The notes: a model not told the origin generated them from the letters alone. A stretch of 64,000 nt of DNA from Nitrososphaeraceae archaeon (GCA_035250975.1 DATFEP010000004.1:1-64000); one strand, 5' to 3'; counted from the first letter of the stretch, positions 57,646 to 64,000 are shown. Made by a program: numbers and translations.

Positions 57646-59055
57646 ATGAATTTTTCAGTCGTCTTTTTTTTGACAATCTTTATTGGATTGTTTATCATTC
57701 CTCATTTAGGTGAAATACAATTTGTTTATCCACAACAAATGAATGAAGATAATCCTGTAGATTCCTTTACTAGACCAGTATCAGTTAAAATTACATCTCA
57801 CTCGGAGGGGGAGAAAGTACCTGTTGGAAAGTTGACTATTTCAGGGATATCAAGTGACGATTCGGACAGAAATTGTTTGGTATATGTAGATTGGAATAAC
57901 AAGAAACCGTTTCAGCAAGTTAGAGCGTCTGGTCCTGGCGGAGTAGATGATTTTTCTGAATGGTTTTTTATTTATGATTCGAATTACCACCAAATAATGG
58001 AAGGAAACAATGACCTTACCTCCAAGATAATGTGCGTAGATGATAATGCTCAGTCCGGAACAAAATGGTACTCAATAAATTTGATAGGAATTTTGAACCC
58101 TTCTATGGTTGAATCCATCCAAAGGAATAACACTGTGAAAATGCCAGATGAACCCTTTCAAAATATTATTCCCGGTTTTAACTCCAATCCTGAAAACATA
58201 ATAGGAGAAAACAATTTACCAAATCCAAATCTTCCATCAGTCAAAGAACCTTCACAGAATATTATTCCCGGTTTTAACTCCAATCCTGAAAACATAATAG
58301 GAGAAAACAATTTACCAAATCCAAATCTTCCATCAGTCAAAGCAGGTTTAAAACCCTTGCCAAATTCAGATGGAAATGATGCTATTTATGAAGAAAATAG
58401 GGAAATCGAATCCATACCTCAAACCAATACTTCTATTCTGGAAACAAATATGACGAACTTCCAGAATATTCAAAACAACTTTACTAATGTCAATAATGAT
58501 TCTGGGATTGATATGATTGATGCCACTAATGATCAAATAACTGTTGAGGAAAATTCAAATAATTCCTCCATAAATACAAATAATCTCAATATTCCAATTT
58601 TTGATGAAAACACAATGAGGGATAATAATTTGAATTTAACTTCTGAAAAAAGAACAAATGAAGTGTTATCTGACAAATTCAACGTAATTCTTTCTTTACC
58701 TGATAACATTGCTTTAGGTAATACATATACCTTAGAAATTTCAGTAATTAATAATGGTTCCTTGCCAATACACGATGCCATTATATCTGGTGAGATATAC
58801 AACAGTGATAGCTTAACTTATGACAAAATAAAATTTTTTGGCAAGACAGATATTGACGGTTCCTACAAATTTCCATTAGAGATTAATAAAATTTTTCCAA
58901 CGGGAGAATATAGTATTAAAGTTTTAGCTACAAAACTTGGATCTCCAGACAGTGTTGTTTCTAAATCCTTTATGGTATCAGATAATTTTAAATCATCTAA
59001 CAGTCAAGACATACCTTTAGGAGGTAACGTTACAAATGAAGTTAAAAATAATTAA
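57646..59055 (+). CDS. Secreted/surface protein with Ig-like domains and Asn-rich repeat linker
   Basis: Signal peptide; VKITS...ISGISSD domain; 32-aa duplication; C-terminal GKTDIDGSYKF Ig-like domain. Confidence 0.75.
   Translation: MNFSVVFFLTIFIGLFIIPHLGEIQFVYPQQMNEDNPVDSFTRPVSVKITSHSEGEKVPVGKLTISGISSDDSDRNCLVYVDWNNKKPFQQVRASGPGGVDDFSEWFFIYDSNYHQIMEGNNDLTSKIMCVDDNAQSGTKWYSINLIGILNPSMVESIQRNNTVKMPDEPFQNIIPGFNSNPENIIGENNLPNPNLPSVKEPSQNIIPGFNSNPENIIGENNLPNPNLPSVKAGLKPLPNSDGNDAIYEENREIESIPQTNTSILETNMTNFQNIQNNFTNVNNDSGIDMIDATNDQITVEENSNNSSINTNNLNIPIFDENTMRDNNLNLTSEKRTNEVLSDKFNVILSLPDNIALGNTYTLEISVINNGSLPIHDAIISGEIYNSDSLTYDKIKFFGKTDIDGSYKFPLEINKIFPTGEYSIKVLATKLGSPDSVVSKSFMVSDNFKSSNSQDIPLGGNVTNEVKNN
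58150..58341 (+). repeat. 96-bp intragenic tandem duplication (EPxQNIIPGFNSNPENIIGENNLPNPNLPSVK x2)
   Basis: Near-identical nucleotide copies starting at 58150 and 58246. Confidence 0.9.
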
Positions 59056-59559: not shown

Positions 59560-60039
59560 TTATTTTCTAGTAAATTTTTCAATTATTTTTTTATGTTCTG
59601 GAAATAAAGAAAGTAGTTTATCCCTCTCTCCTAACTCATAATGCTCAAATTCAAATCCTGGAATGACTGTACATCCTACAAGTGAATATGACAATTTGTT
59701 ATTTACTTGTGCTGCTAGCCAATTATCACTCTCTATCACAATCTCCAAACTGTCTTTTTTCTTATAATTATTTCCTAATACTTTTCTAGTTAACCTAGAA
59801 TTTCTTTCATTAATGATAAATAAGGTTAAACTACTACCATAATAAAAATGCCATATCTCGTCAGCATCTATCTTGTGAAAAGAAGAAAAATCATTACCAT
59901 CTAGTAGGTAATATATGGATGTTACAAATGACCTGTTATTTCTACTCCCTTGGGATCGATAGGTCTCTCTAAAGTATCCTCCCTCGGGATGTTTTGAAAG
60001 GCATAATTCATTAATCCAATGTGATGAATTCAATATCAT
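59560..60039 (-). CDS. Cupin_5 (DUF985) family protein
   Basis: HPEGGYFRET, TSIYYLL, DEIWHFY, SLVGCTVIPGFEF. Confidence 0.92.
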   Translation of the reverse strand: MILNSSHWINELCLSKHPEGGYFRETYRSQGSRNNRSFVTSIYYLLDGNDFSSFHKIDADEIWHFYYGSSLTLFIINERNSRLTRKVLGNNYKKKDSLEIVIESDNWLAAQVNNKLSYSLVGCTVIPGFEFEHYELGERDKLLSLFPEHKKIIEKFTRK

Positions 60040-60344: not shown

Positions 60345-61493
60345 ATGCATATTTCTGAAATTTTTTACATGAGGTATTATCTGTCATATTCCTTAATGTT
60401 GGTTGTTATTATGGTTTCGATAATAGGATTAGGCAATATTGGCTCGGCTATACCACCAGTCGTAGCACAATCTAATGAGAACGGAAATCCCGTTTATCCT
60501 TACCCTGTTCTTCACAAGATTGAGATGTCTGTGCAGAAAATTGAGAAACCGGGTGATGATTTGTTTGGTTACCAGCTTGATAAACATGAAATTTTCGATC
60601 CAAAAAGTGGTGAATTGTTGAATGATATTACAGATCGATATACAAAGGGACCTACCATCCCTGGACCAACATTAATGTTTGAAGAAGGTGATTCTGTTGA
60701 ATTAACTTTTACTAATCCTGGTAAGTCAATGAATGGAATATGTAACACTAATCCATCTCCAGAGAATACAGGTGCTCCAGGTAGGGTAAGTATTCACGTC
60801 CATGGGATTCATTATTCTATAGCAAGTGATGGGACTTTAGGAATTCTTAATGGCTTAAGAGACGAAGGTGTTTGCCCCGGAGAATCAATAAAATATCATT
60901 ACACCGCTGGTCCCGGAACAGCTGGTACATGGCCTTATCATGATCATGCGCTTGGTCTGAATCCTTCCGGAATTTATATTGATGGTTCAGAAACATTAGG
61001 ATTGTTTGGTAATCTTGTAATTGAGAGTCATACTGGAAAAACAGTGGCCTTGGTTAACGGAATACCAACTAAGGTGAACGTAGCCGATATTGCTAAGGAC
61101 GTCTTCTGTTATGTTACAGATGATGCTTTTTGGTGTGACGAAATAGATTACATCAATAACGCTATTCGCACAGCATTATGGGAAAATCCAACTATCGGTG
61201 CTAAGGATGGTGACTTGATAAGATTCCATTTATACGGAATGGGTACCGATTTTCATATCTTTTCATTAACAGGGTATGAATGGCTTGAACCTGGAACAGC
61301 GCAGATAATCAAAGATAAAAAATTCGGGGCTCTCGAAAACCATGTTTTTACTATTCAGGCCAAAAATGGTATTGCTGAATATAGGGACACAATAACATCG
61401 CATCTTTTATCTGGAATGAAAGGATCATTTATGGTAGATAGTGTTGGAAAAAGTGTTCCTGGAAAATCACCATTGGAGGGAGTTGTAAATTAA
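60345..61493 (+). CDS. Secreted two-domain multicopper-oxidase-like protein A (domain-1 Cu ligands intact, domain-2 ligands lost)
   Basis: Signal peptide; PTIPGPTL, SIHVHG, WPYHDH; domain 2 degenerate (FHIFSLTGYEW, EYRDTITSHLLSGM); ATG 60369 is a likely start. Confidence 0.85.
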   Translation: MHISEIFYMRYYLSYSLMLVVIMVSIIGLGNIGSAIPPVVAQSNENGNPVYPYPVLHKIEMSVQKIEKPGDDLFGYQLDKHEIFDPKSGELLNDITDRYTKGPTIPGPTLMFEEGDSVELTFTNPGKSMNGICNTNPSPENTGAPGRVSIHVHGIHYSIASDGTLGILNGLRDEGVCPGESIKYHYTAGPGTAGTWPYHDHALGLNPSGIYIDGSETLGLFGNLVIESHTGKTVALVNGIPTKVNVADIAKDVFCYVTDDAFWCDEIDYINNAIRTALWENPTIGAKDGDLIRFHLYGMGTDFHIFSLTGYEWLEPGTAQIIKDKKFGALENHVFTIQAKNGIAEYRDTITSHLLSGMKGSFMVDSVGKSVPGKSPLEGVVN

Positions 61494-61495
61494 AG

Positions 61496-64000
61496 ATGAA
61501 CAAATTAAAAAATAATATCATAATGATTTTATTTGCAGTAATATTGCTGTCCTCTACATTAACAATTGGGACACAAAATAATGTACACAAACCTGAGCTA
61601 GTGGATAGAAACGGAAACACTGGTCAAATAAAAATCGGTGGGACACATCCTATAATACAAATTGCTGAAGCAACTAGCGAAGAAAAGATGAAAAACGAAA
61701 TGAGAAACAATGTTCCTTACAAGAACACAAACCAAGATTCTGAAATAAACTACTACGCTGATAAAAAATCATTTCAAGATAATAGTCAATCTAATTCTGA
61801 CCTTGGCATAATTCATGAGGTAACTATCGAATCAAAGGAACTACCAAACGGACAATATGGTTATATTATGAAAAAGCATATAGTAAGAGATGAAGACTCA
61901 GAGACTGATTTAACATCTAGGTATCCTAATTTCCCTACTATCCCTGGTCCTACATTAGAAATTCATGAAGGGGATTTGCTGATCCTTACTTCGATAGATC
62001 AGAACGGATCCCAAAAAGTACAGCAAATAAAAGCAAAATCACCTGGAACTTTTGAATATTATGGTGAGAATTTTAGAACTTTAGGATTGTTTGGTGCTAT
62101 AATTGTTGATCCATATGATAATGTTCCTGCACAATTAAACGGCAAAGTCGTATCAGTTGATCTAAGAGATCTTGAGAAACAATATGTTCTGTTCATGGTG
62201 GGTTCTACTTTCTGGGGTCAAGAGATTGATTCAAAGCATAATCAAAAACCATTATGGACAAATCCTACATTAGGAGCAGATTTGAATCAGTTAGTCAGGT
62301 TCCATGTGTTAGGGGCCTTACATCAGCATACTTTCCATCTACACGCTCACAGATGGCTGGATCCGGGAACCACAAACATTATTGATACAAAATTGATTTT
62401 TCCATATCAGAGTCACTCCTTCATAGTTGAAGCAGGCGACAAAGTAGGAATTGGCAATTGGCAATATCATTGTCATGTATTTGCTCACATGGAAGCTGGA
62501 ATGATGGGTACGTTTAAGGTAGGGCCTGTTGGGAGTTTCACCAAAAGTATACCTGGTGCGTCTCCACTCGATGGAGGGCCAACTGAACAAGGGGACTTCA
62601 TAACATTTTCTATAACAGATGATCCAGGAAGATACTTTAAGAACGTAGGCGGAGAAATAAAAATAAAAGACGAAAGAGGAGAGCTTGTAGCATTAACAGA
62701 TACAACAGAATCATTTGGAGTAGTAGGTAAAGGAGGAACTGTACACTTCATAATGGACGATACAAATGCTGTACATACGATTACTAGTCTTTTATGGCCA
62801 TCAGAAGCAAACAATATGCCTATGCAAACTATAAGCAGCCATAATGAAAAAGTAAACTCTAACCAGAAGCTCAACCAGATATCATTACCCCCACATATGC
62901 CATTCGATCAAATTACCGCATATTCTGGAGGTGGCATAGTAAAACTTGAAACGCCTGGATTGTATGTTTTTACTTGCAAAATACATCCCTATATGTTTGC
63001 AGGAGTAATAGCAGATGACCCTGAAACGACTGGTTTTGACTTAGGTGATGAGCTTGAATTAAGCACGGGAGATAAAGTAGCCTCTAGTAATGACCTCTCA
63101 TTAGCTTTATTAAGGACATTCTTCATTGCGAATAATCCCTCTAACTGGAAGGATTATAGTACAGATATTCCTTCAGATTTGAAGGATTCTAGTGTTGCCA
63201 ATTCAGAATGGACACCTAAATTTCCTCATATTCCAGTAAAAACAGACCAAAAGGACGTATTCTATCTTGATGAAGCACTTATGACTTCTATGAAAGAAAC
63301 GACTATTCTCGGAAATACACAACAACAAATTACCGGACTAGACACAATTCAAAATCCATCTATCCCAGGAGTTGGCGAAGTGTGGATAGATACACAATTT
63401 GAGGAAACAGCTAACAAGACAAAACCAGGAACAGCAACCAAGGTGAATGTCGAGAATTGGAAGGTTGAAAGAAAGGTTTCATTGCCTCAAATAAATATGA
63501 ATCATCCACATAATATGTGGAGTGACTCCAATCAAGAAGTGATGTATCAAACTCAATGGTTTGATAATCGGTTGACTGCATTTGACAGAAATACTGGGAC
63601 ATTACTTGATGATATCAAGGTTGGGGATGCACCGTCACATGTTATGACAAACCCTACAAATGACCGACTCTATGTTGTGTTAAGCGGTGAACAAGGAGTC
63701 GCAGAACTTGATTTTGACAAACAAAATAATAAATTCAATATATTGAGAATAATGCCCATGCAAGATTCTGGTCAACTCCCAACACATCCTCACGCACATT
63801 GGATTACTCCAAATGGAGAGAAGATGATTACTCCAAATCATTTCACGAATGATGTAACTATCTTTGATTTCACCAAAAATCAAGGAAAAGGGGAAATCCA
63901 ATCCAGAGTAAATACAGGCATGATGCCCATTGCAACTGGCATGATGCCAGACGGAAAGAAAGCTTACGTCTCTAGCCTGCTTAATAGTACGGTTGATCTT
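61496..64000 (+). CDS. Large secreted multicopper oxidase B + cupredoxin + YVTN-like beta-propeller (partial, runs off the window; not in ORF track)
   Basis: Manual translation is open for 835 codons; HTFHLHAHRW (62327), WQYHCHVFAHMEAGM (~62459), VHTITS + CKIHPYM (62774, 62975), NHPHNMW, PSHVMT, THPHAHW. Confidence 0.88.
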   Translation, partial: MNKLKNNIIMILFAVILLSSTLTIGTQNNVHKPELVDRNGNTGQIKIGGTHPIIQIAEATSEEKMKNEMRNNVPYKNTNQDSEINYYADKKSFQDNSQSNSDLGIIHEVTIESKELPNGQYGYIMKKHIVRDEDSETDLTSRYPNFPTIPGPTLEIHEGDLLILTSIDQNGSQKVQQIKAKSPGTFEYYGENFRTLGLFGAIIVDPYDNVPAQLNGKVVSVDLRDLEKQYVLFMVGSTFWGQEIDSKHNQKPLWTNPTLGADLNQLVRFHVLGALHQHTFHLHAHRWLDPGTTNIIDTKLIFPYQSHSFIVEAGDKVGIGNWQYHCHVFAHMEAGMMGTFKVGPVGSFTKSIPGASPLDGGPTEQGDFITFSITDDPGRYFKNVGGEIKIKDERGELVALTDTTESFGVVGKGGTVHFIMDDTNAVHTITSLLWPSEANNMPMQTISSHNEKVNSNQKLNQISLPPHMPFDQITAYSGGGIVKLETPGLYVFTCKIHPYMFAGVIADDPETTGFDLGDELELSTGDKVASSNDLSLALLRTFFIANNPSNWKDYSTDIPSDLKDSSVANSEWTPKFPHIPVKTDQKDVFYLDEALMTSMKETTILGNTQQQITGLDTIQNPSIPGVGEVWIDTQFEETANKTKPGTATKVNVENWKVERKVSLPQINMNHPHNMWSDSNQEVMYQTQWFDNRLTAFDRNTGTLLDDIKVGDAPSHVMTNPTNDRLYVVLSGEQGVAELDFDKQNNKFNILRIMPMQDSGQLPTHPHAHWITPNGEKMITPNHFTNDVTIFDFTKNQGKGEIQSRVNTGMMPIATGMMPDGKKAYVSSLLNSTVDL

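Follow-up and report, generated by a model that had tools for sequence, protein, structure and literature searches.

A two-gene multicopper oxidase with a type-1 cupredoxin and a histidine-lined propeller in a soil-type ammonia-oxidising archaeon: a putative copper oxidoreductase with relatives among bacterial nitrifiers

The A/B gene pair

In the genome of a Nitrososphaeraceae archaeon (GCA_035250975.1, DATFEP010000004.1:1-64000), contig C16 begins with the 64-kb stretch of DNA analysed here, referred to below as the window. Our subject is a pair of adjacent genes, A and B, that encode the parts of a multicopper oxidase (MCO), joined in the product of gene B to a type-1 (T1) cupredoxin and a propeller. 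How hydroxylamine and NO are handled by ammonia oxidisers has yet to be settled; in archaea, suspicion has long fallen on copper proteins. The genome (2.49 Mb, 94.6% complete, G+C about 32%) contains an archaeal amoA (394 bits), and the named homologues of gene B come from Nitrososphaeraceae and Nitrosocosmicus; the source organism is therefore a soil-type ammonia-oxidising archaeon (AOA). Gene A (60345..61493, + strand) encodes the small MCO subunit of 382 aa, with a Pfam Cu-oxidase_3 match at residues 147-227, and its stop codon TAA (61491-61493) lies 2 nt before the ATG of gene B; its true start may be a downstream ATG, at 60369 or 60396, instead of 60345. The open reading frame (ORF) of gene B (61496..64000, + strand) encodes 835 aa and is still open at the end of the window, as a preliminary description of this locus had noticed. 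The contig holds the complete gene (C16:61496-64873, including the stop), whose product has 1125 aa. A Shine-Dalgarno-like run, GGAGGGAG (61476..61483, + strand), was read directly 13-20 nt 5' of the ATG of gene B and may function as such.

From N- to C-terminus, the product of gene B is made up of a signal or anchor sequence, a two-domain MCO, a type-1 cupredoxin, a folded linker, a seven-bladed propeller and a tail. The combination of MCO, cupredoxin and propeller that the preliminary description had read from the sequence was borne out by Pfam and PDB matches, by profile matches and by a seven-bladed model. Residues 1-25 (61496..61570, + strand) are hydrophobic, lack a twin-arginine and probably form a signal peptide or membrane anchor, by which the protein would be exported; a low-complexity spacer follows directly. 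At the other end, a low-complexity, clade-specific tail of 113 residues (C16:64532-64870, + strand; stop at 64871-64873) closes the protein. This tail is Q/K/E-rich with a direct repeat, KIMLKQQEIMLKQQEI, was modelled with low confidence and is missing from most relatives.

A second complete pair is present in the same genome (G000:C12:68549-72539; L005 6550-10540), where A' has 370 aa and B' 957 aa, and a third B copy, truncated by the contig end, lies on the 3.1-kb contig C59 (G000:C59:2-1375; L006). The organism keeps at least two versions of the A/B enzyme, and probably three. Gene B shares 45% identity over 82% of its length with the N. franklandus protein discussed below, compared with 59% for B', and falls in a separate clade of 19 rows that is marked by an insert in the cupredoxin and by the long tail. 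The enzyme family is unstudied, and gene B adds a somewhat divergent member to it.

Trinuclear-site ligands divided between two chains

The MCO part of gene B was examined in a family alignment of 123 rows, consisting of the query, the best 120 of 1221 matches and two paralogues. Domain 2 (residues 206-345; 62111..62530, + strand), which carries a T1 site and half of a trinuclear site, was recognised by Pfam as Cu-oxidase_2 (residues 255-344; 28.2 bits, cut-off 20.4), and two-domain laccases of the SLAC type in the PDB matched residues 248-357 at E 5.8e-16. The motifs HTFHLHAHRW and YHCHVFAHMEAGMMG align with those of the SLAC laccases, and the ligands that they contain (H278, H281, H283, H325, C326, H327, H331 and M336) are each retained in 121-122 of the 123 rows. 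The T1 set of His-Cys-His and axial Met (H278, C326, H331, M336) is complete, and H281, H283, H325 and H327 constitute B's share of the trinuclear site; individual ligands were presumptively assigned to T1, T2 and T3 by SLAC numbering. Domain 1 (residues 100-205; 61793..62110, + strand) was compared by alignment with gene A, with a single-chain homologue from Nitrosopumilus and with a Nitrosomonas pair, and proved to be degenerate and devoid of copper-ligand histidines. It contains no HxH motif, about 44 residues are deleted where gene A has an HVHGIH loop, and the sole conserved histidine between residues 108 and 269 is H128 (120/123 rows, as against 3/123 for H157 and 43/123 for H248).

Gene A and the MCO part of gene B are paralogues (29% identity, E 1e-34). 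In gene A, domain 1 contains two HxH motifs (H151, H153, H199 and H201) that are kept in 20 of the 21 A-type rows, four bacterial ones among them, and domain 2 has lost the T1 Cys together with the histidines of the HxH and HCH motifs. Gene B on its own does not hold the eight histidines of a trinuclear site, the four of domain 1 being supplied by gene A; the earlier proposal that subunit A completes this site agrees with such a division of ligands. Since the ligands are divided over A and B, it follows from the sequences that a complete trinuclear site could form only between domain 1 of A and domain 2 of B. By the logic of the sequences, A and B are predicted to bind each other.

The same division was found elsewhere. 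A Nitrosomonas halophila pair (L060) has its ligands split exactly as in A/B, and an A-type gene followed by a B-type gene was observed at 13 Nitrososphaeraceae/Nitrososphaerales loci and four Nitrosomonadaceae-type loci; at a further pair on the Nitrososphaeraceae side (L030), the B frame is broken in two. In a Nitrosopumilus homologue (L077), a single chain of 1255 aa includes the full set of eight trinuclear-site histidines and the T1 site, ahead of the same cupredoxin and propeller. This gene (L077:3868-7632, from a Nitrosopumilus sp. record) is the unsplit counterpart of the A/B pair. No paper in the searchable literature describes a two-domain MCO with its trinuclear ligands divided between two different chains.

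The cupredoxin and the folded linker

The cupredoxin occupies residues 365-512 (62588..63031, + strand). Its ligands H427, C494, H497 and M500, in the pattern His ... Cys-x2-His-x2-Met of type-1 (blue copper) domains, are each present in 122 of the 123 rows and are nearly invariant in the 63 diverse rows described below, in keeping with the type-1 cupredoxin that had been read from VHTITS...YVFTCKIHPYM. A Pfam scan of the gene B protein did not name a cupredoxin domain, and a single-sequence search of the PDB with the cupredoxin alone returned just two spurious matches; with the family profile as query, matches were obtained to amicyanins, to pseudoazurin and to the cupredoxins at the C-termini of 6hbe and 9cck (E 1e-8 to 8e-15). 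An insert of 21 residues (443-463; 62822-62884, + strand) with a pLDDT below 50 is specific to the clade of gene B and is lacking in most relatives.

Residues 513-633 (63032..63394, + strand) form a folded linker of helices and strands, whose C-terminal end is a conserved PGVGEVW.DTQFE motif, kept in two family alignments, that leads into the propeller. Residues 365-1012 (648 residues) were modelled as a unit with a pLDDT of 89.7 and a pTM of 0.91, values below 50 being confined to short loops, of which the insert is the longest. Outside the insert, the cupredoxin was modelled as a beta-sandwich with a pLDDT above 90; the linker is mostly above 90 as well, with two dips (59-67 at model positions 191-210 and 77-60 at 231-250). 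Cupredoxin, linker and propeller are predicted by this model to form one rigid body.

The histidine-lined propeller

Blades 1-4 of the propeller lie within the window (residues 634-835; 63395..64000, + strand), and the domain ends at residue 1012 (C16:64531). Residues 666-888 matched Pfam Lactonase (PF10282; 42.9 bits, cut-off 21.7), and an AlphaFold2 model of the propeller showed seven blades (pLDDT 92.5, pTM 0.91), which places the domain among the YVTN/lactonase-type seven-bladed propellers. Of the four histidine motifs that the preliminary description had listed, NHPHNMW (residues 669-675), DAPSHVMT (711-718) and THPHAHW (763-769) stand, whereas MPIATG (810-815) holds no histidine. The corresponding hub residues are H672 in blade 1 (63509-63511), H715 in blade 2 (63638-63640), H764/H766/H768 (63785-63799; H766 in blade 3) and, at the equivalent position of blade 4, A813 (63932-63934), all on the + strand. 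Past the window end are H910 in blade 6 (64223-64225, + strand) and the further hub residues Q859, C905, C909 and D981/D982.

Conservation at the hub was scored in 63 diverse rows that span the archaea and five bacterial phyla: fused archaeal and bacterial proteins, and stand-alone cupredoxin-propellers of Nitrospira, Nitrosomonadaceae, Acidobacteriota, Chloroflexota, Methanoperedens and others. Four histidines are near-invariant, namely H672 (61/63), H715 (62/63), H766 (59/63) and H910 (62/63). H768 (48/63) and H764 (33/63) are partly conserved and H670 is found in just 8/63. C905 and C909, a Cys-x3-Cys adjoining H910, occur in 52/63 rows each; the equivalents in blades 4 and 5 are A813 (58/63) and Q859 (60/63), and D981/D982 are also kept. 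Their retention exceeds chance: among 34 relatives chosen from 150 listed, with identities down to 27%, H672 and H910 were each retained in 33 and H715 and H766 in 32, and the four were still kept at 27-31% identity. All 63 rows pair the propeller with the ligand set of a T1 cupredoxin, and one distant relative has an N-terminal cytochrome c.

In the model, H672, H715, H766 and H910 each sit at the start of the innermost strand (strand A), no later than its third residue, in blades 1, 2, 3 and 6, which agrees with the equivalent positions proposed for them earlier and with the placing of the NosZ histidine motifs. The A strands of a propeller all run parallel along its axis; the four histidines would therefore ring one mouth of the central channel.

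Taken as a whole, the pair is in our estimate, by slightly better than an even chance, a heteromeric small-molecule:O2 copper oxidoreductase, in which electrons would run from a metal site in the hub to the T1 site of the cupredoxin, to that of the MCO and on to the split trinuclear site, where O2 is reduced. The preliminary description had spoken of an internal electron wire; because both T1 sets are complete and conserved, the trinuclear ligands are split and the model is a rigid body, such a wire is a reasonable inference and stays one.

Alternatively, Cu(I), Mn(II) or Fe(II) might dock in the hub, be the substrate itself and be oxidised by way of the two T1 sites, for copper acquisition, detoxification or mineral formation. 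We regard a metallo-oxidase of this kind as unlikely. In its favour, the hub is rich in His and in Met (M668, M674, M717 and M816, conserved in the 123-row alignment), much as cuprous-ion sites are said to be. The known cuprous and ferrous oxidases, however, reportedly bind their metal beside the MCO T1 site and do so without an extra redox domain, and no permease, CopC/D or chaperone gene recurs beside the A/B pair. MCOs of these archaea have been proposed to oxidise Cu(I) during uptake, and several are induced by copper limitation, but the part of the copper-limitation study that was accessible reports MCO1 and MCO4, which are other lineages, and N. viennensis is without the B lineage (PMC7785015).

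Comparison with known copper enzymes

The best sequence match of the MCO part was to the SLAC laccases (for example 4uah, 3cg8 and 3tas; E ~6e-16), whose motifs HxFHxHxHRW and YHCHVxxHxxxGM align with those of gene B. SLAC is a homotrimer, a ring of six domains, with all ligands in each chain, whereas in A/B the ligands are spread over two paralogous chains, one of them with about 760 extra residues. With its T1 site in domain 2 as in SLAC, the MCO of gene B presumably has the type B arrangement. The archaeal MCO3 lineage is said to have been defined by a phylogeny of Kerou et al. in 2016. For N. viennensis, another paper calls the four two-domain MCOs type C.

The closest studied enzyme for the N-terminal half of B is Nmar_1354 (MCO4, PDB 9CCK), which has a two-domain MCO and a pendant C-terminal T1 cupredoxin; as described in the accessible part of its report, it converts NH2OH to HNO with O2 and its two T1 sites are 13.5 A apart (PMC11761707). 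In both proteins, a two-domain MCO leads by way of a short linker into a T1 cupredoxin whose ligands are His2-Cys-Met, and the family profile matched the cupredoxin of Nmar_1354 at E 1.7e-14. Nmar_1354 ends after the cupredoxin and has all trinuclear ligands in one chain, whereas gene B adds a linker and propeller and needs gene A; with these after its cupredoxin, gene B does not belong to the MCO4 type, and in print the homologous pair bears the label MCO3. Nmar_1354 is the precedent both for T1-to-T1 transfer and for a nitrogen substrate.

The preliminary description had drawn a parallel between the propeller and the CuZ cluster of NosZ. Gene B and NosZ both have a seven-bladed propeller with histidines at the starts of inner strands and a cupredoxin-fold domain for electron entry; in a fragment of clade II NosZ, histidine motifs occur in six blades, at the same in-blade position as in gene B. 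CuZ of NosZ has seven histidine ligands in the propeller hub. An hhalign comparison of the family with a partial clade II NosZ gave a probability of 97.5% (E 5e-12) and placed HPHGHW on nPHGinvtpdgky of NosZ, GCHGV on ePHDat, and gPLHtt of NosZ on MPIATG. A blade-by-blade correspondence of the ligands is not warranted by it: blades 3-6 were aligned one blade apart, and blades 1-2 did not fall into register. Identity with clade I or II NosZ was rejected: four near-invariant and two partly conserved hub histidines stand against seven, the positions in blades 4 and 5 are Ala and Gln, and gene B matched neither TIGR04244 nor TIGR04246 at E 0.01 or better. In NosZ a CuA domain with two Cys follows the propeller, whereas in gene B a T1 cupredoxin with a single Cys precedes it; no nos accessory genes were found near gene B.

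L-NosZ is reportedly a lactonase-type, clade III N2O reductase, and is said to come from He et al. in Nature in 2025. Its propeller is of the lactonase/YVTN type, like that of gene B, with a cupredoxin-like part at the C-terminus (model positions 375-478), in the reverse order. The L-NosZ model (NF052460) was among the three best NCBIfam matches of gene B, at a level no better than that of generic YVTN models; residues 646-878 scored 37.1 bits, far below the cut-off of 700, and identity was rejected. Stand-alone relatives scored 27-144 bits with the same model and 30-35 bits in genomes. When true L-NosZ genes were sought in five genomes (four Nitrospiraceae, one Methanoperedens), none scored above the cut-off. 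What holds of the CuZ parallel is the kind of in-blade position; four histidines in place of seven and the failure to match either NosZ or L-NosZ tell against the rest. The enzyme resembles NosZ in plan without being a member.

With this plan of a cupredoxin and a His-lined seven-bladed propeller, the hub might instead reduce N2O, NO or another oxidant, the MCO then serving as electron entry or being vestigial. The rank of the L-NosZ model and the near-top structural position of NosZ speak for such a reductase, and the stand-alone forms could run in either direction. It leaves aside, though, that the T1 and trinuclear ligands of the MCO are intact across the family, an electron sink to O2; and the shortfall in bits, histidines and Cys and the reversed domain order set out above add to the case against it, which makes it very unlikely. 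In the structure search, an archaeal S-layer protein provided the best match with its YVTN propeller, 1l0q (Z 36.2; 286 residues, rmsd 2.0), which was also matched by sequence (E 3.1e-15); NosZ (2iwf) ranked fifth (Z 30.9, 308 residues, rmsd 3.0).

The family unites the design of an MCO with a pendant cupredoxin and the NosZ-like design of a cupredoxin with a His-propeller, a combination undescribed in the searchable literature. No paper found there, Kerou et al. 2016 and He et al. 2025 not being covered, describes an MCO-cupredoxin-propeller or a cupredoxin-propeller family.

Distribution among nitrifiers

When the propeller alone was used as query, 7582 representatives were obtained at E ≤0.001 and 59 at E ≤1e-30, the best ones being 400-1100 aa long. 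The shorter relatives consist of a signal peptide, a blue-copper domain, a linker and the propeller. A search of one genome per species yielded 440 stretches that code for relatives. The top 79 loci, a list biased toward the query, comprise 26 from AOA, 25 from Nitrospira/Nitrospiraceae, 6 from Nitrosomonadaceae, 12 from Acidobacteriota, 6 from Chloroflexota and 4 others, so that nitrifier lineages account for 57. At loci outside the A/B pairs (Nitrospira, Acidobacteriota, Chloroflexota), the cupredoxin-propeller stands alone, with no MCO detected within 6 kb.

Genome surveys used the propeller query at E ≤1e-40, and the order-wide tallies, which include the unpublished genomes G242 and G249, were cross-read by hand. 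In the order to which the window belongs, 35 of 301 genomes carry the propeller family; all 35 are among the 192 that are amoA-positive, and none is among the 109 without amoA. Carriers make up 9 of the 10 other genomes of the genus and 24/89 of the family; a second amoA-bearing family has 10/89 and two further ones 0/18. Among Nitrosomonadaceae, 100/151 genomes are carriers, often with fused and stand-alone forms together; by hand count, these are 60 of the 92 with bacterial amoA and 40 of the 59 without an assembled amoA. Genomes with both a fused form (frame of ~920-980 aa) and a stand-alone form (~600-650 aa) include G366, G387, G406, G416, G418 and G433. Nitrospiraceae have 20/151 carriers, 19 with full-length frames of stand-alone size (612-839 aa) and G526 with a partial match in a 408-aa frame. 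Neither group of ammonia oxidisers carries the family throughout: it is common among the bacteria and patchy among the archaea. A core role in nitrification, against which the preliminary description had itself said that a patchy distribution among AOA would count, does not survive this survey; the core enzyme still missing from ammonia oxidation in archaea is not this protein.

Taxa were mixed in a quick tree of 80 propeller domains, with Nitrosospira in a Nitrospira clade and Nitrosarchaeum and Methanoperedens among bacteria, and the label fused or alone needed at least four changes on it; three of the 'alone' rows come from genes that are truncated or frameshifted, and the branch of B' is long. 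The tree suggests repeated lateral transfer among nitrogen-cycle microbes of soil and groundwater. At loci L046-L061 and L093-L096, Nitrosospira and Nitrosomonas propellers nest in Nitrospira and Acidobacteriota clades.

The presence of the family in non-nitrifying Acidobacteriota and Chloroflexota would also suit an oxidase of sulfur compounds (methanethiol, thiocyanate or sulfide), by analogy with the copper propellers of SBP56/MtoX and thiocyanate dehydrogenase. A selenium-binding-protein homologue, 2ece, is among the structural neighbours (Z 29.7), and one distant relative matches the MtoX model weakly (E 0.0016). These matches are no better than those of any propeller, and the family is concentrated in nitrifiers by the query-biased count of loci and by the Nitrosomonadaceae survey given above; a sulfur substrate therefore strikes us as highly improbable.

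Expression

A 2025 AOA biofilm study refers to the N. franklandianus genes NFRAN_2029 and NFRAN_2030 as 'two copies of type MCO3' and ranks them among the most upregulated in biofilm, with log2 fold changes of 3.16 and 3.17 (PMC12448741). Its supplement gives 14,073 and 9,353 transcripts per million (TPM) in biofilm as against 2,296 and 1,514 in planktonic cells, NFRAN_2029 being fifth by TPM in biofilm, and labels NFRAN_2029 by arCOG as 'Beta-propeller repeat containing protein'. In the N. franklandus record (2,836,447 bp), we found a B-type gene of 948 aa preceded by an A-type gene of 351 aa, and the gene order at this pair matches the description of the locus in PMC12448741, which identifies NFRAN_2029/2030 as B-type and A-type. 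They are the same two-gene kit as A and B of the window, with MCO, cupredoxin and propeller in the B-type gene. The word 'propeller' was not found in the full text of PMC12448741, whose passages on the two genes treat them as copies of one MCO and mention neither cupredoxin nor ligand split, and the two locus tags were found in no other searchable paper.

The authors of that study suggest cell-surface modification (PMC12448741, accessible part). Following them, A and B could be a surface- or matrix-modifying laccase, in which the T1 site of the MCO oxidises envelope glycoproteins, phenolics or matrix polymers and the propeller is a non-catalytic binding domain or scaffold. The S-layer propeller 1l0q as nearest structural neighbour and the long low-complexity tail of gene B lend themselves to such a role. 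It would leave unexplained why a second T1 domain is, in the model, rigidly packed on the propeller, why four hub histidines are kept down to 27% identity, and why cupredoxin-propellers stand alone with no MCO within 6 kb in Nitrospira, Acidobacteriota and Chloroflexota; we think it decidedly unlikely.

For the window itself, 13 RNA runs held 29-40% of the sampled words, and there were 20 holders from 10 studies overall. Contigs from four soil metatranscriptome runs of four studies cover the A/B pair at 95% identity or more, and two of them bridge the A/B junction, one with 2,473 nt over 60383-62855 and the other with 3,038 nt over 61104-64000 and beyond; gaps in the contigs of runs X1 and X8 over the window are uninformative. 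These data would fit both expression in soils and co-transcription of the two genes. RNA-library contigs from two studies start at 60383 and 60397, the latter abutting adapter sequence, inside the longest ORF of gene A.

Neighbouring genes

The 79 best loci were clustered by their neighbours, and synteny was lineage-specific: metallophosphoesterase and cupin genes in Nitrososphaeraceae, and GT2, radical SAM/SPASM and DUF547 genes in Nitrospira. In the window, a DUF985 cupin gene (59560-60039, - strand) lies upstream of gene A and divergent from it; the association is probably synteny only. The same neighbour is found at seven related Nitrososphaeraceae loci. In an exported Asn-rich protein of 469 aa encoded farther upstream (57646-59055, + strand), a stretch of about 31 residues is duplicated in tandem (PFQNIIPGFNSNPENIIGENNLPNPNLPSVK, twice). 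The C-terminal domain of this protein is only weakly MG2-like (E 0.019). On the 3' side of gene B are genes for an NHL propeller, a metallophosphoesterase, an alcohol dehydrogenase and purK/purE. The neighbours of the N. franklandus pair (L107; G014:C1:1793500-1803500) are arranged divergently and code for a 4Fe-4S ferredoxin, an ABM monooxygenase, a hemerythrin and an FMN reductase; these four are absent at the A/B pair of the window. A hemerythrin adjoining MCO4 in N. maritimus has been reported in print.

Proposed mechanism and significance

The architecture of the gene B protein is real, conserved and expressed. In the favoured copper oxidoreductase, gene B would encode the large subunit of an exported hetero-oligomer. 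The ring of hub histidines would bind mono- to trinuclear copper, or another metal, at the mouth of the channel, where a small substrate may be oxidised. Single electrons would then travel from the hub to the T1 site of the cupredoxin, to that of the MCO and then, by the Cys-His bridge, to a trinuclear site lying between A and B, at which O2 would be reduced to water. Cupredoxin, linker and propeller may be the conserved catalytic core, to which the MCO is an add-on that makes a self-contained oxidase; where the core stands alone, as in Nitrospira, many Nitrosomonadaceae, Acidobacteriota, Chloroflexota and some archaea, its T1 site would trade electrons with soluble carriers.

Several observations weigh against this proposal. 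The fold searches (Foldseek and VIA-align) single out no metalloenzyme, NosZ lying amid dozens of propellers at Z 28-33, and just two of the four hub histidines align His-on-His with NosZ, its N-terminal blades being out of register. The clustering of the hub histidines is predicted from topology, and the hub metal, the electron path and the activity of A/B are putative. An A:B ratio of 1:1 cannot close a trimer ring of the SLAC type, and any trimer of A and B would hold just one complete trinuclear site, because such a ring has three subunits. Across lineages, no copper chaperone, nos accessory gene or informative neighbour recurs. RNA-library contigs may include carried-over DNA. Finally, no match was found in 32 of the 92 amoA-positive Nitrosomonadaceae genomes or in 157 of the 192 amoA-positive archaeal ones, and any role in nitrogen-oxide metabolism must therefore be dispensable.

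Such an enzyme would probably be an accessory one of soil nitrifiers, outside the core pathway of ammonia oxidation. That its substrates are reactive nitrogen intermediates (NO, NH2OH or HNO), removed in dense aggregates or biofilms, is possible, although we would place it well below an even chance. More specifically, and in our opinion doubtfully, a hub copper centre not described before, made of 4-6 His, the Cys-x3-Cys, Gln and Asp, might oxidise NO (or NH2OH/HNO) to nitrite. If so, the stand-alone form of Nitrosomonadaceae and Nitrospira would feed an electron into the respiratory chain through its blue-copper domain and would be a candidate for the enzyme, long sought in bacterial ammonia oxidisers, that oxidises NO; in the MCO-fused, split A/B form of soil archaea and some Nitrosomonas, two T1 coppers would connect this centre to O2, which would give a self-contained NO/NH2OH:O2 detoxifying oxidase, switched on in aggregates and biofilms.

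For work on the protein, the single-chain Nitrosopumilus form is a simpler target for expression than the A/B pair. The family, which joins a blue-copper domain to a His-lined propeller, is common to archaeal and bacterial ammonia oxidisers and Nitrospira. It offers what is possibly a new biological copper site, and it is a candidate for those nitrification side reactions in soils by which NO, HNO and N2O are produced or consumed.

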